From: Dictyostelium discoideum | Lineage: Eukaryota | Assembly: GCA_000004695.1 (NCBI GenBank) | Contig: CM000152.2 | Coordinates: 6,048,001 to 6,112,000 of the forward strand | Direction: 5' to 3' | DNA: 64,000 bases | In this document: in pieces, positions 5,979 to 28,100 of the stretch | Numbering within the stretch: position 1 is the stretch's first letter | Layout: every line of letters begins with the position of its first letter | The notes under the pieces: generated by a model | Database searches by the model: none | What the model saw: only the letters and a program-made list of their open reading frames with translations | Told to the model about the DNA's origin: nothing | Translations under genes and position numbers: made by a program

Positions 5979-6471
5979 AAAAAAAAAAAATATATAAATT
6001 AATAAAAAAAAATAAAAATAAAAATAATTTAAATTTAAATTTAAAAATAAATTTAAAAATAAATTTAAAATTAAAAGTAAATACAAAAACGAATAATGTT
6101 TAAGTTGTATTTAAATTTAAAAAAAAAGAAATAGACTTTCTTGTTTTTTTATTAAATCTAAAACATTAAGTGGATTACAATTTACAAATTTCATATTTTA
6201 TAAAAAAAAAAAAAAAATTAAAAAATAAAAAAAAAAAATTAAAAAAAAAAAAAATATTTTTTGTAGGCTACAACACAATCCTACCCTTTAGGAAACTTCG
6301 CACATTTTTGGACCGAGATATTTATTTTAAAAAAAAAAAATTAAAAAAAATAAAATTTAATTAACATTCAATTATACCTCATAAAAAAAAAAAATAAAAA
6401 AAAGTAAAAACAAATCACACCATTCATTTGTCAATAAAAACTATCCGCAATAGAAAAAAATAAAAAAAAAT

Positions 6472-6896
6472 ATGATAAAAGATACACACTATGAGTATGT
6501 GTTTTATTAATAATATAATTAATTTTAATTTTAATTTTAATTCTAACCAAAAATAAACTAAAAAAAAAAAATAAAAAATAAAAAAAATAAAAATAAAGTC
6601 ATTTTTTTAAAATTATAATTTTAGGAAATAAAGATATAAATAAAAAAGATTTCATAGATAATTCATTTTCTGTATGTTTTTATTTTTTTTATTTTTTTTT
6701 TTAGTTTATTTTTTTTTTTTTTCTTTTTATTAATTTTATTACAAAAATTTAGGAATTTAATTTAGAAAAAAATAAACTTCAACAACAACAAATAAATATT
6801 CAACAAACTCTAAATAGTGAATCAAAAATTAGATTGTTTCAATATGGCAATAAAAGAATAAAACTACAATTGGTATTTTTTTTTTTTTTTTTTTCC

Positions 6897-6934
<38 letters not shown>

Positions 6935-7522
6935 AAATATTAACCAAAATAAAAATATAAATAGTTGAGATATGACCCAGGAGTAGGAGATTCAACTATT
7001 TCTAAAGTATTTAGAGGAACTCATTGTTTAATTGTAATGTTTGATAGTAATAACAAAGACTCTATTAGTAATTTATCTTGTTGGGTTCAAGAATCAAGGA
7101 GGTATTCAAAGATTGATACACCAATAATAATATTAGGAATCAATAATACTGATGATGAACAAAAATTATATGAACAAGATTTAATAGAACAATTGGATGA
7201 AATTAAAAGATCATTCAATAATAATAATAATACTGAAATTCCAATTTTTCAAATAACTTTGAATAATCCAAACCCCAATATATCTAAGCAACTATTTGAT
7301 AGTATTTTAAAAGTTTCAATTGAATTTCAAAATAAAAATGACCCCAATAATTTAATAAATAGCTCAAATAATAATAATATCATAAAAACAACTGCAACAA
7401 CTACCACATCAAATGACATGCCAACAACAATAACTATATCACAATCCCAACATGTATCAACCTCAAATAACCCAAAAAGAAAAACTAATATATTATCATT
7501 TTTATTGTTTTGGAGAAAGTAA
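6472..7522 (+). CDS. Rab-like paralog A. It is highly degenerate: the P-loop is lost and NKxD has become NNTD. Candidate exons are 6472-6494?, 6753-6873 and 6965-7522.
   Basis: Exons 2 and 3 are in frame (..KIRLFQYGNKRIKLQL | LRYDPGVGDSTISKVFRGTHCLIVMFDSNN..IIILGINNTD..). They align with the paralogs B, C and D. The 5' exon linkage has a phase conflict. Confidence 0.4.
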
Positions 7523-7591
7523 TTTATGGTTTTTTTTTTTTTTTTTTTTTTTGGGGGGAATATTAATCAAATTGAGGATAATCTATATAAA

Positions 7592-7622
<31 letters not shown>

Positions 7623-7938
7623 ATAAAAATATCTAATTTTTTTTTTTCATTTTTTATTTCACTAAAAATACCTTTGTAAAAAATATCATTTAAGATATTT
7701 GCAAATTATTTTTTTTTTTTTAGCTTCTTCTGAAAAACACCTAAATCAAAATTATTTTTCGAATTCAAAACTGCACTAAATTTTTCATCTTGTGTTTTTT
7801 AACCAGTTTCGGTAGTCCAAAGGTTTTTTTTTTTTTTTTTTTTCACTAAATATCTTTTGATTTTTTGATGTCATTTATTAAAAAAAGTAAAAAAAAAAAA
7901 AAAAATGGGAAATAAAATATCTAATTATTTTTGTTTAA

Positions 7939-7972
<34 letters not shown>

Positions 7973-8111
7973 TTAAATAAAGAAAATTTAAATTCTTCTT
8001 AAAAATTTCTATTTTATTAAATAAATATTTTACTTGTAATAAATAAATTATAAATATAAATAATAAAAAAAACAAAAAATTAAAAAAAAAAAAAAAAAAC
8101 ATTGAATACCT

Positions 8112-8391
8112 ATGACCACGAGTATGAATTTCAAAAAAAAAAAAAAAAAAAAATTAAAACTTAACATCAATTATACTATTTTATTAAATTTCTTAATTTT
8201 ATTCTAAAAAAATATACAACAAAAATAATAATAGTAAATTCTTTACAACTTTAGTAATTGGTGATACTGGAGTTGGTAAAATGAAATTTATTCAAGGGTA
8301 TAGTGACGATAATTATAAATACTTTTTGAGTGATGGCTCGAGGTTTAAATTATTTTCATACGATGGATTTAAAATAAAATTATTATTGGTG

Positions 8392-8470
<79 letters not shown>

Positions 8471-8476
8471 TTAATT

Positions 8477-8513
<37 letters not shown>

Positions 8514-9036
8514 ATAATTTTTATAGGAAAGATATTTTGATAGACCATATGGCGGTGGATCAAATACCACTGTATATAGAAAAACTCAATGCTTTTTATT
8601 AATGATTGATGTTTGCGATACTGATTCATTGCAAAGTATTAAAATTTGGATAAGAGAAATTGTATCACTATCAAAACATGGAACTCCAATAATAATTATT
8701 GGAAATAAAATTGATTTAAAGGAACATAGAAAATTTACAAGTGAGCAAGCTTTAGAATTAATTGAACAAATTAAAGATAATTTAAATATAAAAATGCAAA
8801 TTCCATATTTTGAAATCTCTTCTATACAACCCGACCAATCACAATATGATAGAATTTTTAAACAAGTTTATTCGTTATCAAACCAAAGATTTTACAAACC
8901 TTTAATTAATATTAATGAAGGTAAAAATATTGTTGTTGAAGATTTTTCAAAAAATGATTCAATCCCCAATGATGATGGAATTAAAAAAAATAGAAAAAGT
9001 AAAATTTTTAAAGATATTTTATCAATTTTTAAATAA
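8112..9036 (+). CDS. Rab-like small GTPase paralog B, missing the switch-II DTAGQ motif. Candidate exons: 8112-8121?, 8234-8388, 8527-9036.
   Basis: Translated exon 2 is KFFTTLVIGDTGVGKMKFIQGY..FKIKLLL and exon 3 is ERYFDRPYGGGSNTTVYRKTQCFLLMIDVCDTDS..IIIGNKIDL.., with G1 and G4 motifs present. Exons 2 and 3 join in phase 0. The first micro-exon carries an 8-nt insertion relative to the paralogs, so the start is uncertain. Confidence 0.5.
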
Positions 9037-9105
9037 AGATATAATTTTTTAAAAAAAAAAAAAAAAAAAAAAGAAATTAAAATATATATTAAAAATGTGT
9101 ATTAA

Positions 9106-9139
<34 letters not shown>

Positions 9140-9363
9140 GTAAAAAAAAAAAAAGGAAAAAAAAGTGGAAATTGAAAACCATTGATATTTTTTTTTTAAA
9201 ATTAAATTAATATTTTAAATGAAAAAAAAAAAAAGCCAATTTTTTGGGTTGGAAGATTTAAATAATATAATATTATTTATCCACAAAAAAAAAAAAAAAA
9301 AACAAAAAAAAAAAAAAATCAATTACATTTTTTAAATTATATATCCAATTGAAATATTAGATA

Positions 9364-9453
9364 TTTTTTTAAAATGAATAAAAAAGAATACGAGTAGGTA
9401 TTGAATATATAAATATGGCCAAATGAATATCATTTTTAATATTTTTTTATTTT

Positions 9454-9501
<48 letters not shown>

Positions 9502-9661
9502 TTTTTAAAACGTTAGTGATTGGAGATACTTGTGTTGGTAAAATAAAATTTATTCAAGGTTATATTGATGAAAATAATAGAGATGTATTTAATAACGATT
9601 CAAGATTTAAATTATTTTCCTGTGACGGATTAAAAATAAAATTTCTATTGGTTTGTTTTAT

Positions 9662-9700
<39 letters not shown>

Positions 9701-10267
9701 TATAAAAAAAAAATAATAATAACATATTTTTTAAATTTAATTTAAACAAAATATGTTTATAGGCCAACTGGAGGTGGATCAAATACAACAGTTTATAAAA
9801 ATACTCAATGCTTTTTAATAATATTTGATGTTTGTAATTTAGATTCCATGCATAGTGTTAAACTTTGGATAAGAGAAATTGTAAAATTTTCACAAGAAGA
9901 TACACCAATTATTGTTATTGGAAATAAGATTGATTTAAATGAAAAAAGACAAGTTAAAAATGAAGAAGTGATAGAATTTATTGGACAAATTAAAGCTGAT
10001 TTACAATTAACATTGAATATTCCATATTTTGAAATCTCTTCATTACAACCCGACCAATCACAATATGAAATAATTTTTAAACAAGTTTATTCATTATCAA
10101 ATCTAAGATTTTTCAACCCATCAATCAGCTTTGACGAGGATAAAGAAATTATTGATGATTGTTACTCTGATATTGATATTAAAGAAGATTCAAATGAAAA
10201 AAAAATTAAAAAACAAAAGAGAAAAAGTAAATCACTTAAAAAAATTGTTTCAATTTTTAAAAAATAA
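9364..10267 (+). pseudogene. Rab-like paralog C, frame-disrupted at the exon 2/3 junction. Exons: 9364-9383, 9497-9650, 9763-10267.
   Basis: Exon 1 is ATGAATAAAAAAGAATACGA followed by a GTAGGT donor. Exon 2 reads (D)KFFKTLVIGDTCVGKIKFIQGY..KIKFLL. Exon 3 reads PTGGGSNTTVYKNTQCFLIIFDVCNLDS..VIGNKIDL.. but starts 1 nt out of phase, and it lacks the ERYFD segment seen in B. Confidence 0.5.
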
Positions 10268-10290
10268 TTATTTAAAAAACAATAAAGCTA

Positions 10291-10324
<34 letters not shown>

Positions 10325-10488
10325 TTTTTTTTTTTTTTTCTCTTTTTTTTTTATATTTTAAAAAAAAAATTACAAAATTGATCAATTTTTATTTTTATAA
10401 CCAACTTTTTTTTATTAACCTTTGTATTATATTTCAATAAAAAAAAAAAATTTTTAACAAACCTAAAAAATGCTTTCAAAACAGGATT

Positions 10489-11318
10489 ATGAGTAAATAT
10501 CATGATAATTGCAATAAAAAAAAAAAAAAAATAAAAAAAAATAAAAAAATAAAAAAATCTAATAATAATAAAAATAGACACTCTATAAAGATTTTATTAT
10601 CAGGAGATTCTGGTAAAAGTAGTTTTTTAAATAGAGCTATTGATGATATATATTTTGAAAATAATGTTTATCAGTGTGCACCCTCTTTAAAATTTTTTAA
10701 TGATCCAAATAGTTCTAGAGAGAATAAATATTATTATAAAAATTTAATATACAAACTTTGTTTTGTAAGTTTGACTAAACATTAAATTTTAAAAAAAATA
10801 TTTATTTAAATAGATTTATAGAGTTATTATTAATTTTTTTTAATTAATTTATATTAAAAAAAAAAAAAAAAAAAAAGTATGAATATTTTCAAGATAGATT
10901 TCGTTCAATAGGTAATAACCCCTATAGAGGTGCAAGATTTAATTTTATTTTATTTAATGTATGTGATCAAGAATCATTTGATAATGTCCCTAAATATTAT
11001 TTTGAGGCAGAAAGGTATGGAAAAGAAGATATTCATATTATTTTAATTGGTGTTGGAATTGATGATATTGAAAATAGAATTATTGATTATGAAGTTGCTT
11101 TAGATTTAGCAAATTCTAATAATACTCCATATTTTGAAGTAAATAATAAATCGCCATCACCACTTGAAAAAGAAATTTATCAAAGAATAATTGAAACTGC
11201 AATCGGAAAAGTTCATGATGAATTAAATATTCAACCTCCACCATCATCAAAACCATCAACTCCAATAACAACAACAACCAAAACTAAAGGTATTTCAGGT
11301 TTTTTAAAAAAGAAATAA
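10489..11318 (+). pseudogene. Rab-like paralog E. It has a degenerate P-loop (LSGDSGKSS), has lost the intron-1 donor (read-through), and has a frameshift in the last exon.
   Basis: ORF 10489-10764 reads MSKYHD..HSIKILLSGDSGKSSFLN..KLCF and ends at a GTAAGT donor. The last exon, 10879-11318, reads YEYFQDRFRSIGNN, then shifts by 1 nt, then reads PYRGARFNFILFNVCDQESFDNV..IGVGIDD.. It is homologous to exon 3 of B and D. Confidence 0.45.
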
Positions 11319-12010
11319 ATAAAAAAACCAATAATAATTAAATAAAATCAACCTTTTTTTTATTTTTTTATTTTTTTATTTTTTTTTTTTTGTAAAACAA
11401 AAACTGTTTTTTGAAATCTCAAAAAATTTCACTTAATTTAATAAGAATCAATTTCAACTGTGAGGTATGAAACAATCTACAAAAAAAAAAAATAAAAAAT
11501 AAAAAATAAAAAAATAAAAAAAATAATAATAAAAATAATAATTAAATATCAGGTATGGATTATTTGGTCTAAATTTGAATTTTGTTTTTTTTTTTTTTTC
11601 TATTTTTACAAAAATTAAAATATCTTTATTTTTTTTTTATTTTTTTTATTTTTTATTTTTTTTTTTTTTTTTAAACAGTTTGATAGCGTTGCACAAAAAA
11701 TTATTGGAGATTGAAAGTTTTTTAATGGGAAAAAAATCTAAAATGATTAATTAACTTGTACAATATTAAAAACCCGAAAAAAGTTGAAAAAAAAAAATCT
11801 TTTCTTTTTTTCAGTGTGATGACGTGCAACAGTAAAAAATCATATTTTATTTTATTTTTTTTGGTTTTTTTTTTTATTTTAAAATAATCAAATTGATACA
11901 CAAAAAAAGACTTCACTAAATTTGATGTGCAATAAAAAAAAATCATTTTGTCTTTGTCTATTTTTTTTACAATTTTTTTATTTTTAATTTGAATAATTTA
12001 TTGTAATAAA

Positions 12011-12047
<37 letters not shown>

Positions 12048-12134
12048 AGATACAAAAAAAAATAATATAAATATAAAAAAGATAATTATAAAAAAAAAAA
12101 AAAATATAAACATAAAAAAGACAAAAAAATAAAT

Positions 12135-12504
12135 ATGTGTGATTACGAGTAAGAAATTTTTATTTTTACAATTATTTGTTTGTTTATTTTTTTTTTTATA
12201 ATTATTTGTTTTTTTTTTTTTTATAATTTTATTTTATATTAATATTAATTAAAAAAAAAAAAAAAAATAGTTTCATATTTGAATTTTTAGTAATTGGTGA
12301 TTGTAATGTTGGAAAATCATCATTTGTATATCAATATTGCGAAAACTTTAAAACCAAAATAAGAAGTAGAGAACGTGGTGATGGTAATACATTTATACCT
12401 AAATTAATAAGAGTTGATGATAAAAATTGTTTTTTAAAATTTGTATGTATTAAAAAAAAAAAAAAAAAAAAAAAATAATTAAATAAATAAAAATTATTAA
12501 TTGT

Positions 12505-12543
<39 letters not shown>

Positions 12544-12989
12544 TTAAATATTATAAAAGAGTAAATTGTTTACCAAATTATAGATTTATAAATATAGCGG
12601 ATTGTATATTTATACTATTTGATGTTTGTAATAGAGAATCATTTGATAATGTTGGACATTATTATAATGAAATTTTAAAATATTCAAGTGAAAATTTATT
12701 AATTACATTAATTGGTTGTAAAGCTGATTTATTAAATAGAGAAGTTGACCAAAATGAAGCATTAGAATTTTCCAAAAAACATAATATACCCTATTTTGAA
12801 GTTAATAATTTTTCACCTTCAGAAATTGAAAAGAATGTTTATCAACAAATCTCACAAACTATTCTACCAGAACTTGTAAATATTAATTCAACTACTCAAC
12901 CTATAACTGAAAATCAACATCCCCCAACTAAACCCCACTCTCCTCCAATTAAAAATAGTTTTTTCAAATTTTGGATAAAAAACAAATAA
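12135..12989 (+). CDS. Rab-like small GTPase paralog D. It is the most intact copy, about 210 aa, and lacks switch-II DTAGQ. Exons: 12135-12148, 12271-12442, 12543-12989.
   Basis: Canonical splice sites (GTAAGA, ..atAG; GTATGT, ..aaAG) give a continuous frame: MCDYDFIFEFLVIGDCNVGKSSFVYQYCENFKTK..KNCFLKF | VKYYKRVNCLPNYRFINIADCIFILFDVCNRESFDNV..LIGCKADL..EFSKKHNIPYFEV.. The N-terminus resembles the Rab motif YDYLFKLLLIGDSGVGKS. There is no C-terminal Cys prenylation motif. Confidence 0.65.
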
Positions 12990-13183
12990 TAATAATAAAA
13001 TAAATAAAAAAAAAAAAAAAAAAAAGGATAATAATTATTATTCATTTTTTAAAAATTTGTATATATAACTAAAAAAATTCTCTCTATTTAATTTAATGTA
13101 AAAAAAATAAAAATAAAAATAAATTAGGAACACAATTATTTCTTTTTTTTTTATAATATTTTAAAAAAGCTTTGGAAATTTAT

Positions 13184-13582
13184 TTAGTTTTTCTTGGCTT
13201 TACGGGCAGCAGCTTTTTTGGCAGAACGGAGAGCAGATTGGACTCTGTGTAAACGACCTAAGGCAGCAGCTCTTAATTCTGGAGCATATTGGGTGGCTAA
13301 AGTTTTGACGAATCTAGCAGTCTTTCTGGTGTTGACAGTTGAGAAAGTGGTGGTTTTTTTTGATTGAGCTGGGAAGGCAGCTTTTTTAACAATCTTTGAT
13401 GAGACAACAACTTTACCGTTAACGGCAGCAACGTCGATGGTGGTTCTTCTGGCAAGACCGGAGTATTTTAAGGAGTTTTTGTTTCTTAAATTACCTGGTT
13501 CAGCAGATAAGGTTAAACCGTGTGAGGATTTTAAGAAAGCGTTGTTCTTTTTGATAATGCTCCAAACGAGATCTTGAGACAT
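13184..13582 (-). CDS. rpl28: 60S ribosomal protein L28e.
   Basis: The 132-aa ORF (MSQDLVWSIIKKNNAFLKSSHGLTLSAEPGNLRNKNSLKYSGLARRT..) aligns with eukaryotic RPL28 (human [43 protein letters not shown]..). It is a GC-rich, codon-biased island in an AT-rich region. Confidence 0.85.
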   Translation of the reverse strand: MSQDLVWSIIKKNNAFLKSSHGLTLSAEPGNLRNKNSLKYSGLARRTTIDVAAVNGKVVVSSKIVKKAAFPAQSKKTTTFSTVNTRKTARFVKTLATQYAPELRAAALGRLHRVQSALRSAKKAAARKAKKN

Positions 13583-13893
13583 GATTTATTGTATATCTAA
13601 TTTTTAGTAATAAAAAAAATGAATAATTAATATTGACTTTGTTTTTCCTTTTTAAAAATAAAAAAATAACAATATAAAATGGTGATTTTAAGTAACAATT
13701 TGTTTTTTTGAGGTGTTATTATTTATTTATTTTTTTATTGTAAAAAATAGATAGTGTGGGTGCTATACGTTTGATGTTGATTTTTTTTATATTGAAATTG
13801 GGGTAATAATTTGTATTACTTTTTTAAAAGTTTTTTTTTGACTGTAATTTAATGGAGAAATGATTCGTTTTTTTTTTTTTTTTGTGTGTGATC

Positions 13894-15778: not shown

Positions 15779-16155
15779 CGTTCGTTTTTCTTAATTTTTT
15801 TAAAAGTTTTTTTTTTTATTTTTTTTTTTTTTTATTTTAAATTTAATTTTTTTTTTTTTTTTTTTTTATTGGTATCATTTATTTATTTATTTTTTTTTTT
15901 TTTTTAAAAAAACAAATTTAATTTTTAAAATAAAAAATGAAATAATTTTGAATAGATTTTATATTTTTTATTCCCTAATCTAAACTGATCATAAATGTAA
16001 AAATAAATGTGATCATCTTTGATAGAATTTTTTTTCTTTTTCAATTTTTTTTTTTTAATTTCATTTTTTTTTTTTTTTTTTTTTTAATTTAATTTTATTT
16101 TCATTGGATTACCTTTTTTTTTTTTCATCATAAAATAAAAATAGAATTATAAATA

Positions 16156-18293: not shown

Positions 18294-19798
18294 TATATCT
18301 CTCTCTCTCTTTTTGCTTGTTTGTTTTTTTTATTTTATTTTATTTTTATAACTATATTTATTTTTTCTTTTTAACAGTTTTTTTAATTTTATTTTATTTT
18401 TTTTATTTTTAATTTCTTTTTTTTTTTTCTTTTAACTTGAAATATTTCAAAATCTTAAAATTTTGAAGAGTGTATATTTAATTTCATGTTGCATAATTTT
18501 TATTTGTCATTGCAAAAAATATTTCCTAGAAATAAAAATGAAATTAAAAAACCAAATTTATATTTTTTATAATATAAAGATATACCATCAAATAGGAAAA
18601 AATAATAATAATTATAATTAATACATTAACCTTAATTTATTTTTTTAAAAACTAAAATATTTTCTAAATTAATAATTTAAAAAAAAAAAAAAAAAAAATT
18701 ATTTTTTAGGAAAAAAAAAAAAAAAAAAGAATTAATTAATCAACACAACAACTATCAACTATTCCAATAAAAAAATCCTTTATCACTTTCTTAACTAGTT
18801 TCAAATTCTCTGTTGGTGGTAGTGAACTAATTTCCAAGATTTTGATTAAATATTCTTTACCAATTGAACCAATGATTTAATGATTTTGAAATACCATGGA
18901 TTAATAGAAGGAACAATTTTAAAATTTTTTTGGTGTATGTATAAATTTAAATTTAAAAAAAAAAAAAATTAAATTTATTTATATTAAAAACTTTAATTTT
19001 ATTATTTTACTTTGTAATTTCCTAAAACAATTTTTTATTTTAATAATATTTTTTTAATAATTTTTAACCATGTATTAATTTTCAATTATAAATAAAAAAA
19101 CTAAAGAAAAAAAAAAAAAACAAAAAAAATAATAATAACATTAATAAAAATAAAATTAAAACATTTTGGTTATAAATAGACCAGGTGTTGTTTAAATATA
19201 ACATTCTTTTTTTATTTTTTTATTTTTGGTTGAATTTATGATTATCAAAAAAAAAATATGTTTTCATATGAAAATTAAAACAACACTAAAATAAGTCTAA
19301 AAAAAAATCTAAATGTTTTGGTTCTAATTAAAATTTTAAAAAAAACTTTTGATTCTTTTTATTCCCCAACAATAATTAAAAAATAAAAAAAATATCTTTT
19401 TTTTTAAAATTTTTTTTAAAAATTTTTTTTTTTTATTTTTTTAAAATTTTTTTTTTTTTTAGTTGCAACGAAATTTATTGTTTAAGAAAAAAAAAAAAAA
19501 AAAAAAAAAACCCTATATATAAAAATAAAAATAAAAATAAATAAAAATAAAAAAAAATAAATAAAAAATAAACAAAAAACCATATATAACCTTGGAAAAT
19601 AAAAATAATAAAAAAAAGTGTAAAATTTAAAAGAGTCGAGAAAAAAAAATAAAAAAAAATAAAATTAAAATAAAAACAGAAAAAAATCACAAAAAAAAAA
19701 AAAAAAAAATAATATAAAAAGTCATAAAATAAAAAAAAAAAAAATAAAATAAAAAAATAAAATAAAATAAAATAAAATAAAAACAACATATAAATAAA

Positions 19799-23194
<3,396 letters not shown>

Positions 23195-24151: not shown

Positions 24152-24224
24152 GCTCGATTAGCTCAGTCGGCAGAGCGTGGTGCTAATAACGCCACGGTCG
24201 CAGGTTCGATCCCTGCATCGAGCA
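24152..24224 (+). tRNA. tRNA-Ile (anticodon AAU).
   Basis: Cloverleaf: acceptor GCTCGAT/ATCGAGC, D arm GCTC..GAGC, anticodon stem TGGTG/CGCCA with loop CTAATAA, T arm GCAGG-TTCGATC-CCTGC, discriminator A. Confidence 0.9.
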
Positions 24225-24655: not shown

Positions 24656-25102
24656 TTTTTTTTTTTTTTTTTTTTTTTTTTGAATTGGATAACGCAATTA
24701 TTATTTGCTTCTCCTTGAGATGCTAGATCTCATTTTATTTTATTTTTTTTTTTTTTTTACAGGGTCTCTAAAAGAGGGGTTAGTTTACTTTTTTTTTTTT
24801 TTTTTTTTTGTTTCGAATTTTGAATTGTATTATTACTTTTGATTAAAACATCTTTTTTGTCCAAACTTTTTTCTAAATCTTTTTTTATTTTATCGTCTGG
24901 TTCGTGATTGATGTTTATGACGTATTTGAATTGTTTTTTTTTTAATTGAGTTTTATCCACAATTTCGCTTATTTTTTGTAGGCATTTGTGTTGCTTAATA
25001 TTTGTGGTGTTGTTTGTGATTTTCATTTTATTTTCTTTCTATTTTTTATATTTTTCTTTAAAAAGTTAAAAATCTGGAAATTTTCTGATTATCTTGGGTT
25101 CA

Positions 25103-25163
<61 letters not shown>

Positions 25164-28100
25164 TTATTTATAGAAAGTACTGAGTGAATTATTGTATTTT
25201 TTGAGATGTTTAGGAAGTTCTATTGCGTGAAGAGGTGAGTTCCATTGTCTGCTAAATTGTAATAGCTTTAGCGAGATTAGTGAGTCTAATTTATTTTGTT
25301 CTTCTGGCCGTTGCTTTGATTTGATTCTTAATGTTTTGTTTATAACCGCTTGTGTCCTGTCCCATGCAGCTCTTTGTGTTTTAATTAGTTCACGTATGAC
25401 TTGTTGTCTGTGAATTATTATTTCTTTTTCATCGTGAATGAGTTTATTTCTTTTGTGCCAGATTTTATCGAATATAATAGCTATTAAATTGGCTACTAGT
25501 GCAATTTGTAGATGGTTTAAAATCTTCACATTCCAGGTGTGAGTGGTGTGTCCACACTTAGTTAGGGTGTAGTTGAAGATTTCTTGTGTGTTTTTGATGT
25601 GGGCTTTGCAGTTGAAGAATATATGTTCTGAGGTCTCATCTTCCCCACACTGTTGGCATGGCATGTTGTATATTTTTGGTAGTGCTTTCAGTGTGTATCT
25701 CCATAATAGATCTCTACCTTTCATGTTTATTATTTTTTTGATTTCTTTAAATGGAAGGTGTTTGCTATTAATTTTGGTCATTATTTCTTTTTGGCCAGGA
25801 GTTGGTATGAATTTGTTGTGTTCAGGAGATTGAGTTGTCATCATATCTTCGTATATTTTTTTTAATTTTGGGAGGTGTTCGTAGTGTGTTTGTTTATTTT
25901 GTGGAGTTTTTAATTGGGTCCATGCTTGCTTGCATTGCCAGTGTAGTTGTAGTTGATTTTGTTTTGTTGTTGTTTTGTTGTTGTTGTTGTTTTTGAGTTC
26001 CTCTTCCCACAGTTTTATATATGAACTAGGAGTGTTACTTACTCTTTGGTGGAGGTATCTTTCGAATAACCATGCTTTCTGTGCTAGTTCTCTTGTCTTC
26101 AGGTTCCATAAGTTTAGGCCACCATTGATATAGTTGTTTTGTCTTCTTTGTAGTGAAAGAGAGTTTTTAGATTTTGTGTTGAAAACGAATTTTACGATGT
26201 TATTTTCAATACTATTGTGTTGTGGTGTGGTGTTGATGTAAGTGTGGAACGTTAACTGAGATAGTGCATATGTTTTTGCCATTATGAGTCTGCCCATATA
26301 GGTTGATGAAGTTGAGTTCCATGTTACTAGTTTAGCTCTGATGTTGTCTGAGATTGTATTGATTTTGGATTTGATACCCTTATTGTTGAAGTCAAAGCCG
26401 AGGTACCTTTCGTTTGATTTTATGACGGTGTATAGCGTTCTGGTGTTCCATTTGAAAGTGATACACGAGCATTTGGTTTGGTTTATTTTTGCGCTGGTTG
26501 CTTGGCAAAACTTCTTGATCCATTCATTCATGAGGAAATGGTCCATAAAGTTGTATGCTATTGTTGCTGTATCATCGGCGAACTGTAGTATTTTAATGGT
26601 TTCTTTGGTTACACCATTGATGCAGCGGTCATTTATTATAGTAGTTGCCATGCATTCACCCACTAATGCGAAGATAGTGGGAGAGATAGGATCACCTTGT
26701 TTGGTTCCTCTTTTTGATGTAAAGCTTTTAGATAATGAGTTATTGATGTACACTGATGTTTCTGATTCATTGAGTAAGTTCATTATTGTGAGGACCATTT
26801 TGAGTGGTAGTTTTAGATGTGCAAGAGTACGTAGAATGGCGTTATGTGAGAATAAATCGAATGCTTTTTCAAAATCATAAAATGTTATGATTGGTTCCAT
26901 ATCCTCTTTTGTGTTAATCTCTCGTTTTATTATTTCTATTGTTGAGTTTAAGGTGATGATGTTATCGTGCAGTAGTCTTCTTGGTACGAATCCAGTTTGG
27001 AATGGTGAGATTATTTTGTTTAAGAACTTCAGGATCCTATTGTTGATTATTTTCGAATAGATTTTGTAATCGACATTTAGAAGTGTTATTGGTCTATAAT
27101 TATCCAGGTTGTTTGGGTCTCCTTTGTTTTTATATATAGTAATCAATATCCCTTGTTTGAAGTCCTTTGGGATTGTTGTGTTCCAGAAGTGATTGTATAG
27201 TTTTGATATTATTGGTAGAATTTCATTAATGTGGTTTTTGTAAAATGTTGGAAGGAGTCCATCTTTACCAGGTGCTTTTCCTTCTTGTATTTTTTCAATG
27301 CCTAGTCTGATTTCATATCCTTCTATTGGTTGATTAATTTCGTCCAATATCTTTTGATCAATCCTTTTATTGAATGTTTTTAGGAGTTCGTGGTGAGTGT
27401 CTTCGTTGCATTCTCTCTTCTGGTACAGGTTCTCGTAATATCTTCTTGCTACTTCGAGGATATCCTCGTGTTTTGTTACCAAACAATTGTTGCTTGGATC
27501 TAGAATTTGAGGGATTTCATTTGTCTTTCTTTGGACTTTTAACCTTCTGGTTAAGTATTTTGATGGTGTTTCTTTGTTGTTGATGTGGGTGTTGGTTTGG
27601 TTTGCTTGTTTTATTCTTACTTGTTCCTTTAGAATATTGTTGATCTCTTCTTTAAGGAAGATTGCTCTTGAATCTTTGGCTGTTTCGAGTTTTTCTGCGA
27701 GTTCTTTTAGTTTGTTTTTGGTTTTATTGCTTTCTCTAATTTCTATATTAATTGACAGTTTCTTTATTTCATCTTTTAGTTTCAACCATTGTTCGCAAAT
27801 GTTTAATTTGTACCATTTGCTGGTGTTCTCTTCGAATTTTTTATTGTAGTATTTAATTGTTTTATTAATTTTGAGGCTGGTTGAATTCATTTTGAGAGTT
27901 TCTAGGTTTTGTCTCCATAGTCTTTCTCCTTTCTTTTGTTGCTCGTATTCTGGTATTTTTAATTCAATGATTACCATGTTGTGATCAGATTTTAATTTGA
28001 TTTCCTTAGTAGTAACTATTGGGTTTAGATGGAGTATCTTCTTTGAGACAAAGACCCTATCGATGGTTGATTTGTTTCTTGGAAATGTGATTCCATTCTT

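Follow-up and report, generated by a model that had tools for sequence, protein, structure and literature searches.

Several Rab-like proteins are known that lack prenylation, including RABL2/3, IFT22/RABL5, and IFT27/RABL4, and these families are ancient, widespread, and mostly linked to cilia. Here, we describe a group of Rab-like genes in a stretch of 64,000 nucleotides (referred to below as the window) from chromosome 3 of Dictyostelium discoideum AX4. The genes are organized as follows:

6472–12989, forward strand: tandem array of five Ras/Rab-family genes, in the order A, B, C, E, D
6472–7522, forward strand: copy A, P-loop-less (AX4 DDB_G0282647/Q54S65, 257 aa); exons 6472–6494, 6599–6671, 6753–6872, and 6965–7522
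8102–9036, forward strand: copy B (AX4 Q1ZXG2); exons 8102–8121, 8235–8388, and 8527–9036; TTG start in the window
9374–10267, forward strand: copy C (no AX4 protein on record); exons 9374–9393, 9497–9650, and 9746–10267; intron-2 acceptor AA in the window
10470–11318, forward strand: copy E (AX4 Q54S63), intact; exons 10470–10492, 10578–10764, and 10878–11318
12135–12989, forward strand: copy D (AX4 Q54S62, “Rab GTPase,” 210 aa), intact; exons 12135–12148, 12271–12442, and 12543–12989

These five genes are Rab1-derived and small-GTPase-like, and they are old, conserved, and already annotated. The array is catalogued under the names “Rab GTPase,” “small GTPase,” or “Rab GTPase domain-containing protein.” The models of A, B, E, and D match the AX4 proteins listed above, and each of the four AX4 models is obtained exactly by splicing the window, which also encodes an obsolete fused B+C model (UPI00004E4824) exactly. 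Five genes are likewise called at the locus in the near-identical assembly GCA_054883475.1, which we infer from PMC12745789 to be that of AX2-214 and refer to as the AX2-like assembly. Searching the literature with the gene identifiers of the array gave no match. Rfam returned only two tRNAs in the window, none of them within the array, and in an exact-protein look-up against Logan contigs, the M-initiated ORF of C exon 3 and two other ORFs of the window were not on record.

All five products score above the gathering cut-off of Pfam PF00071 (Ras; 21.6 bits), with 28.8 bits for A, 64.2 for B, 69.7 for C, 56.8 for E, and 73.9 for D. The top PDB matches are Rabs (Rab1A, Rab1B, Ypt1, Rab27, and Rab11) rather than Ras, Rho, Arf, or Ran, and the best sequence matches of D and E are Rab1A/Rab1B/Ypt1, with E-values of 1e-17 to 1e-20. 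The AlphaFold model of C is a confident alpha/beta G domain, for which the best PDB folds are Rab3D, Rab1b, Sec4, and Rab1a (target-normalized TM-scores of 0.72–0.81 for the ten best). The genes share a common architecture, with a first exon of 14–23 nt encoding M..(D/H)(Y/H), a phase-2 intron 1, and a phase-0 intron at the position of switch II.

The nucleotide-binding motifs are incomplete to different degrees. D is the sole copy with a canonical G1 P-loop, GxxxxGK[ST] (GDCNVGKS, that is, GxxxxGKS); the corresponding segments are GDTGVGKM in B, GDTCVGKI in C, GDS--GKS in E, and GNKDINKK in A. The G3/switch II motif DxxGQ is missing at the aligned position in all five copies, where the segment has the length found in Rab1A and a diverged sequence. 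The G4 motif [NT]KxD is present as NKID in B and C only, with CKAD in D, GIDD in E, and NNTD in A. None of the copies has a cysteine among its last six residues (tails ...ILSIFK, ...VSIFKK, ...GFLKKK, ...FWIKNK, and ...LLFWRK), so that no C-terminal prenylation motif (CC, CXC, or CCXX) is found.

A sequence-only reading of this DNA had taken the unequal motifs, together with apparent lesions, as a snapshot of graded decay in which D is active, B and C are progressively damaged, E is heavily damaged, and A survives without a P-loop. Orthologs were recovered from syntenic loci and compared exon by exon using tblastn; word-indexed homolog searches with D and A yielded almost nothing past the closest orthologs. 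Over exon 3, B and C share 58% of their amino acids, E and D 45%, and A and B about 30%. Every paralog is represented by 1:1 orthologs within the D. discoideum species complex; in up to six other genomes, these retain an intact start, splice sites, and stop, and at loci L002–L006, the orthologs contain zero premature stops and have AG, GT, and stop signals intact throughout. D. purpureum has a member of the B/C type. Gene content varies, with C absent in D. citrinum and both E and D absent from the D. firmibasis locus. Estimates of dN/dS between each copy and its orthologs are all below 1, which argues against decay. The ratios (NG86) are 0.09–0.16 for D, 0.12–0.25 for B, 0.12–0.31 for C, 0.18–0.50 for A, and 0.38–0.86 for E; all copies and comparisons fall within 0.09–0.50 except E versus D. 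cf. discoideum (0.86). The order of constraint runs from D, the tightest of the five, through B and C to A and then E, and these values indicate that all five paralogs are under purifying selection. The degenerate G motifs, which are also present in the orthologs, are fixed, conserved states of each paralog, that is, stable pseudoGTPase-like features rather than steps of decay.

There are no frameshifts or premature stops in any exon of the five copies. D is intact and its introns run from GT to AG, as had been reported. In E, the first exon (10470–10492) ends in a canonical donor, ATGCTTTCAAAACAGGATTATGA/GTAAAT (TATGA/GTAAAT, the slash marking the exon boundary), and the donor that was thought to be lost is the next “ATGA/TAAT,” 9 nt downstream of the real one. 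The frameshift ascribed to exon 3 of E does not exist, as 10878–11315 is a single ORF reading ...RSIGNNPYRGARF..., and the spliced 216-aa product equals the deposited protein KAM9950711.1. The AX4 model of E has an additional 9-nt exon at 10814–10822. The observation that E has a degenerate P-loop was accurate: the loop is shortened to GDSGKSS, and the E orthologs keep this form (GDSGK[ST]S).

Copy A, as noted earlier, is in frame, lacks a GxxxxGK, and has the sequence INNTD. Its spliced translation equals the AX4 protein Q54S65 (P0028) exactly, with GT..AG at every intron; the in-frame AX4 model results from use of the acceptor at 6598/6599 rather than one near 6623. Orthologs of A occur in six genomes, and dN/dS is about 0.2 against three of five genomes. 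The suggestion of a “neofunctionalised” copy fits a conserved P-loop-less gene with this level of constraint.

Only B and C of the window have lost a start codon or splice site, and no such loss is seen in six other loci. Apart from one single-base lesion each, B and C have the coding sequences of intact alleles in the near-identical strain. The features concerned are as follows:

8102, forward strand: lesion 1, single base; T in the window and A in all other genomes, turning the ATG of B into TTG
9745, forward strand: lesion 2, single base; A in the window and G in all other genomes, abolishing the intron-2 acceptor AG of C
7905–7932, forward strand: upstream exon (MGNKISNYF) that the curated AX4 model of B joins to an internal acceptor at 8255

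B and C are thus disabled beside intact copies in the window, as the sequence-only reading held, but not by the lesions that it described. The 8-nt insertion claimed for B is absent: the micro-exon 8102–8121 (20 nt) equals that of C in length and phase, and CTATGACC falls inside the codons ACC TAT GAC CAC (T-Y-D-H), which are found in every ortholog (MNTYDHD). In the AX2-like assembly and five other genomes, B has its ATG and a protein starting MNTYDHD. The curated AX4 protein Q1ZXG2 is reproduced exactly by 7905–7932/8255–8388/8527–9036. D. citrinum, D. firmibasis, D. dimigraforme, and D. cf. discoideum either lack the upstream exon or have it out of frame; the exon is an annotation work-round for the missing ATG.

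C retains GDTCVGK and NKID, as stated before. Its third exon is indeed out of phase if it starts from the nearest AG (at 9763), which is because the intron-2 acceptor at 9744–9745 reads AA instead of AG; the ERYFD-equivalent codons, said to be missing, are present as ACA AAA TAT GTT TAT (TKYVY) at 9746–9760. With the normal donor after 9650, the window offers zero in-frame AG, and in-frame products of C require a cryptic donor (after 9621 or 9654) together with an acceptor at 9774, 9792, or 9843. The AX2-like assembly has a call for an intact 231-aa C protein (P0016), whose 90% cluster has other members in three further assemblies. AX4 annotation differs from the ancestral arrangement, a 227-aa B and a 231-aa C in the AX2-like assembly and sister species, in having a B model with a nonconserved upstream exon and no C protein. 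The earlier caveat about assembly errors was apt, although the positions named were wrong, the lesions lying at 8102 and 9745.

Both lesions are part of a larger feature:

8102–10319, strand not applicable: cluster of 9 substitutions private to the window relative to the AX2-like assembly, with both lesions inside

Over 21 kb, 12 substitutions distinguish the window from the AX2-like assembly, and nine of them are packed into these 2.2 kb (binomial p = 2.7e-7). At each of the eight sites of the cluster that can be aligned, the window has the derived allele, and just one of the nine substitutions is coding, although coding sequence makes up 62% of the stretch (p = 0.0025). In 10 of 11 scorable differences (chance, 19–26%), including a two-base run, TC>CA, the base in the window is the one that comes next in the AX2-like assembly. 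Such reading ahead by one base is what a trace gives once it has shifted phase behind a homopolymer. When the cluster and a retrotransposon are set aside, differences occur at about 1.3e-4 per base, which equals the discrepancy rate between the reference and real AX4 implied by PMC3466296 (1916 shared candidate differences in about 11.5 Mb).

Taken together, these patterns suggest that the changes at 8102 (A>T) and 9745 (G>A) are probably miscalled bases in a patch of the 2005 Sanger assembly that is of low quality and flanked by homopolymers. AX4 would then carry five intact genes, and the AX4 annotation, with its work-round B model and a C without protein, would be a consequence of the errors. 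It speaks against an artefact that the nine differences include one in a start codon and one in a splice acceptor, the chance being ~2% if errors are confined to noncoding DNA; under random error, this is a mild coincidence. Our favored overall account, which we consider reasonably likely, combines an old, conserved array, pseudoGTPase-like proteins, and two lesions that are sequencing errors. Paralog mixing or gene conversion between B and C was rejected as a source of the differences, as the TTG and AA of the window match neither the sister copy (ATG in C, AG in B) nor other genomes.

It is possible, if rather unlikely, that the lesions are real and that within the last few decades AX3/AX4 lost the start of B and the acceptor of C in a local burst of nine mutations. 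AX4 would then have two fresh null alleles, that is, nascent pseudogenes, with functional genes in AX2 and wild strains. Both are derived changes that only the AX4 reference carries, the curated AX4 models are built around them, and the two hits at critical sites count in favor of this option. AX3 was made by nitrosoguanidine mutagenesis, so that AX3/AX4 went through treatment with an agent that can give closely linked multiple mutations, and G>A accounts for two or three of the nine changes. However, six of the nine changes are at A:T pairs and mostly transversions, whereas the nitrosoguanidine spectrum is G:C>A:T, which makes this agent an unlikely cause. Well outside the cluster, two isolated differences (18597 and 19512) bear the same read-ahead signature, which points to a general trait of the sequence record and not to a single local event. 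Two further points count against real mutations: the background rate matches the known reference-versus-AX4 discrepancies, and the 1380 nt of B and C coding sequence show no further change.

A neighbor-copying signature can also arise biologically, by dislocation mutagenesis with error-prone polymerases. A more specific proposal, to which we give slightly less credence, is that one localized burst of hypermutation in the AX3/AX4 lineage, such as a repair patch made by an error-prone polymerase, left AX4 with both lesions. If so, nine same-strand neighbor-copying substitutions within 2.2 kb would have knocked out two adjacent paralogous Rab-like genes together, and AX4 would be a natural double null for a conserved P-loop-/switch II-defective Rab-derived family, with AX2 as the matched wild type.

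It is very improbable that the lesions are real and B and C are still expressed in AX4, B via exon 7905–7932 or the TTG, and C via the donor after 9654 and the acceptor at 9774. In-frame products do exist for both genes, and AX4 curators accepted the upstream-exon model for B; against this, the upstream exon is unconserved beyond D. discoideum and its use removes most of strand beta-1, and each in-frame C isoform drops 8 to 42 residues of the G domain. Graded decay by birth and death is scarcely credible, for although completeness of the G motifs and constraint (D, B/C, A, E) are graded and gene content (C; E and D) differs between species, E is intact, the insertion in B is nonexistent like the donor loss and frameshift in E (three of the seven supporting observations, that on C being half right), the motif states of every copy are kept in its orthologs, dN/dS is below 1 and exons are intact elsewhere, and the paralogs far predate the species complex (30–58% identity among them), the gradient having arisen from misread splice sites and a miscounted C run.

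What matters in practice for Dictyostelium users is that the AX4 reference departs from AX2 and all sister genomes at two functionally critical bases, and that these differences led to the contrived B model and to the lack of a C protein in the AX4 set. Should the bases prove erroneous, two one-base corrections have to be made in the reference and its annotation; should they prove genuine, two null alleles in a conserved gene family separate AX4 from AX2, which would be relevant to strain comparisons.

Judging from their motifs, the array proteins may be nucleotide-switch-defective, pseudoGTPase-like adaptors with a Rab fold, and their conserved basic-hydrophobic C-terminal tail (e.g., KRKSKxxKxIxSIFK and FFKFWIKNK) could mediate membrane attachment in place of prenyl groups. 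The family offers a clear-cut case of Rab-derived proteins remaining under selection after the loss of switch II and the lipid anchor, and should be of modest interest to small-GTPase specialists. With Rab1A/Rab1B/Ypt1, the array proteins share the N-terminal (E/D)YD-x-x-FK-hhhhGD strand, and E retains the Rab-type “DRFRSI” and “YRGA” after switch II. In contrast to these Rabs, they have no switch II DTAGQ (zero of five), no SAK, and no CC/CXC, ending instead in the basic-hydrophobic tail. RABL2/3, IFT22/RABL5, IFT27/RABL4, and pseudoGTPases likewise combine a small G domain of Rab ancestry with a lack of lipid-anchor cysteines and degenerate G motifs under selection. Unlike the RABL/IFT families, the array family was recovered in this analysis from D. 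purpureum and members of the D. discoideum species complex alone, and it occurs as tandem copies.

The window is strongly AT-rich (G+C 15-35%), and positions 6472-12989 hold five plus-strand genes in the order A, B, C, E, D. All five exceed the gathering score of the Pfam Ras family and share an exon 1 of 14-23 nt that codes for M..(D/H)(Y/H) and ends in phase 2, an exon with strand β1, the P-loop region, and β2/β3, and a final exon that begins exactly at the switch II position; A has one additional intron compared with the other four. The splice models show D (12135-12989) to be intact, as proposed from sequence alone, and its product is identical to the AX4 protein XP_640177.1/Q54S62, "Rab GTPase." Likewise, the description of A as in frame, P-loop-less, and carrying NNTD was right, its model (6472-6494/6599-6671/6753-6872/6965-7522) being equal to AX4 Q54S65/DDB_G0282647. 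The window yields each of the four AX4 models exactly when spliced and is therefore the AX4 reference sequence. The five-gene array is real and was annotated before.

The sequence-only reading had described this array as a graded decay, with active genes and pseudogenes side by side, which is not supported. The reported loss of the first donor of E arose from taking the next ATGA, 9 nt downstream; exon 1 (10470-10492) ends in TATGA, directly followed by GTAAAT. The frameshift proposed for exon 3 of E is absent, 10878-11315 being one ORF that reads ...FRSIGNNPYRGARF... For B, an 8-nt insertion had been claimed, but exon 1 (8102-8121) is 20 nt long, the same as that of C, and CTATGACC falls inside T-Y-D-H codons that are present in every ortholog.

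The syntenic loci of a divergent D. discoideum isolate, D. cf. discoideum, and D. dimigraforme contain all five genes in unchanged order. D. citrinum lacks C, which is missing between B and E (L002, 7754-8328), and in D. firmibasis synteny breaks after A, B, and C, so that E, D, rpl28, and Tma16 are missing from this locus (L004, 10385-16883). The orthologous exons are all open, acceptors, donors, and stops are canonical in every case examined, and B and C, the copies taken for dead, rank among the most conserved. Amino-acid identity in exon 3 is 58% for B/C, 45% for E/D, and about 30% for A/B, and a member of the B/C type also occurs in D. purpureum (XP_003293042.1); the duplications are therefore much older than the species complex.

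dN/dS of each copy (Nei-Gojobori, window versus each ortholog)
D: 0.09-0.16
B: 0.12-0.25
C: 0.12-0.31
A: 0.18-0.50
E: 0.38-0.86

Constraint is graded across the copies, but differently from the gradient first proposed. A, which has no P-loop, is clearly under constraint, and E shows the loosest constraint of the five, yet is intact. Against the D. cf. discoideum ortholog (L006, 10548-11321), E gives a dN/dS of 0.86 (12.5 synonymous and 44.5 non-synonymous differences), far above the values against the other genomes, and selection on E may have been relaxed or positive in that branch. The A ortholog of D. citrinum (L002, 5286-6443) has 309 aa versus 257 aa in the window. Asparagine runs in the last exon of A are highly variable in length across species (also L003, 6369-7421, in the divergent D. 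discoideum isolate), and the G-domain remnant and C-terminal tail that flank these runs are conserved.

The D protein and a protein of 1131 aa from 19799-23191 led to two overlapping stretches of a near-identical D. discoideum chromosome (GCA_054883475.1). At the array, this assembly has five called genes (242, 227, 231, 216, and 210 aa). The spliced E product of 216 aa equals the deposited protein KAM9950711.1, from which AX4 Q54S63 differs solely by an optional 9-nt exon (10814-10822). This exon, ATTTATAGA, codes for Ile-Tyr-Arg, is flanked by AG and GT, and is left out in the annotation of the near-identical assembly.

A comparison of the two sequences over 21 kb gave 12 substitutions, besides length differences in homopolymers and microsatellites. 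Two substitutions are lesions: at 8102, T in the window for A turns the ATG of B into TTG, and at 9745, A for G turns the intron-2 acceptor of C from AG into AA; there is no further coding-sequence difference in any of the five genes. With the normal donor of C, no in-frame acceptor is left in the window, and the frame is kept solely by cryptic donor/acceptor pairs, at the cost of 8-42 residues. The claim that exon 3 of C starts out of frame holds, from 9763, if the first available AG is used; the codons homologous to ERYFD, said to be lacking, are present (TKYVY, 9746-9760). The lesions have left their mark on the AX4 annotation: the old fused B+C model (UPI00004E4824) begins at an internal Met past the P-loop and omits part of exon 3 of C, the current B model (Q1ZXG2) takes in an exon further upstream (7905-7932) for which other species show no conservation, and the protein cluster of C contains no AX4 protein.

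The source project of GCA_054883475.1 used Nanopore and Illumina reads (Holland et al. 2025; PMC12745789), and since AX2-214 is its only AX4-like strain, the wild isolates having been picked for divergence (PMC12745789), we infer that the assembly is AX2-214. Nine of the 12 substitutions cluster within 2.2 kb (8102-10319) of the 21 kb compared (p = 2.7e-7). Eight cluster sites could be aligned to outgroups, and at each of them, as well as at 15872, the window allele is derived and the AX2-like base is the outgroup base. The start-codon change is the only coding change in the cluster, in which 62% of the sequence is coding (p = 0.0025). As tabulated from the sequence contexts, 10 of 11 differences that could be scored show in the window the base that comes next in the AX2-like assembly (e.g., CAATG>CATTG, TAGAC>TAAAC, GGACA>GGCCA, and ATTCAT>ATCAAT, AX2-like > window), compared with 19-26% expected by chance. 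The isolated differences at 18597 and 19512 follow this read-ahead pattern too, which is the kind of pattern that a phase-shifted Sanger trace gives past a long homopolymer. Position 18597 lies between called genes and reads AGGAAAAA in the window versus AGGTAAAA in the AX2-like assembly, a donor-like AG followed by GTAAAA.

When the comparison was widened to 33 kb, the added differences were confined to a retrotransposon, and the unique sequence beyond the cluster, approximately 24 kb, contained three substitutions (1.3e-4 per base). Resequenced AX4 lines share 1916 candidate differences from the reference over ~11.5 Mb (~1.7e-4 per base), which the authors put down to errors in the reference or to differences between clones (PMC3466296); the background is therefore what reference error alone predicts. 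Taken together, the lesions at 8102 and 9745 are probably base-calling errors in a low-quality stretch of the reference. That they are real, very recent AX3/AX4 mutations is less likely. The spectrum consists mostly of A:T transversions and is not that of nitrosoguanidine. Two of nine cluster changes hitting critical sites is a mild coincidence under either reading (about 2%).

The AX2-like assembly is shorter in 26 of 28 length differences (2024-23024; e.g., 8394-8432 and 3742), mostly homopolymer runs and otherwise short repeats. One poly-T, in intron 2 of B, is 39 nt shorter and another 34 nt shorter; long runs are mis-measured by one of the two sequencing technologies. The retrotransposon, flanked by two tRNA genes (24152-24224 and 30780-30853), is an insertion shared with the AX2-like assembly and contains two ORFs:

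25164-28385, minus strand, reverse-transcriptase ORF
28598-29932, 444-aa ORF

All 25 substitutions at 23-33 kb fall within 25092-30266, inside this element, and one of the two assemblies may therefore have mixed repeat copies.

Around the array, intergenic blocks at 6255-6335, 7636-7716, 7727-7825, 11414-11457, 11670-11830, and 11880-11942 are 85-99% conserved in sister species (92% in D. citrinum for the block upstream of A), and Rfam gave no match at these blocks. The motif YCACTWAAW has six of its 11 window matches in or beside the array (6165-11921), its total for the window being at chance level. These blocks and the motif may be shared promoter elements. One gene lies directly downstream of D, with Tma16 and a WD40 gene beyond it:

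13185-13590, minus strand, ribosomal protein L28e gene

This synteny is kept in all sister genomes but D. firmibasis.

Alignment of the five copies to Rab1A showed DxxGQ, SAK, and C-terminal cysteines in none of them. GxxxxGKS occurs in D only and NKxD in B and C only. The final P-loop residue is Met in B and Ile in C, the P-loop of E, correctly reported as GDSGKSS, misses two residues, and A has GNKDINKK. These G-motif states are repeated in the orthologs of each copy. Judging from motifs only, the copies most likely form a Rab-fold family that would no longer cycle as GTPases and would bind membranes or partners via a conserved basic-hydrophobic tail. What remains is this conserved pseudoGTPase-like Rab offshoot, of modest interest for specialists, and two single-base anomalies of the AX4 reference. 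For C, AlphaFold gives a model (mean pLDDT 74, >80 for most of residues 8-180) with a G domain, then a disordered linker, and finally a short helix at the C-terminus. Its top structural matches are Rab3D, Rab1b, Sec4, and Rab1a, and among solved structures D and E are closest to Rab1A, Rab1B, and Ypt1.
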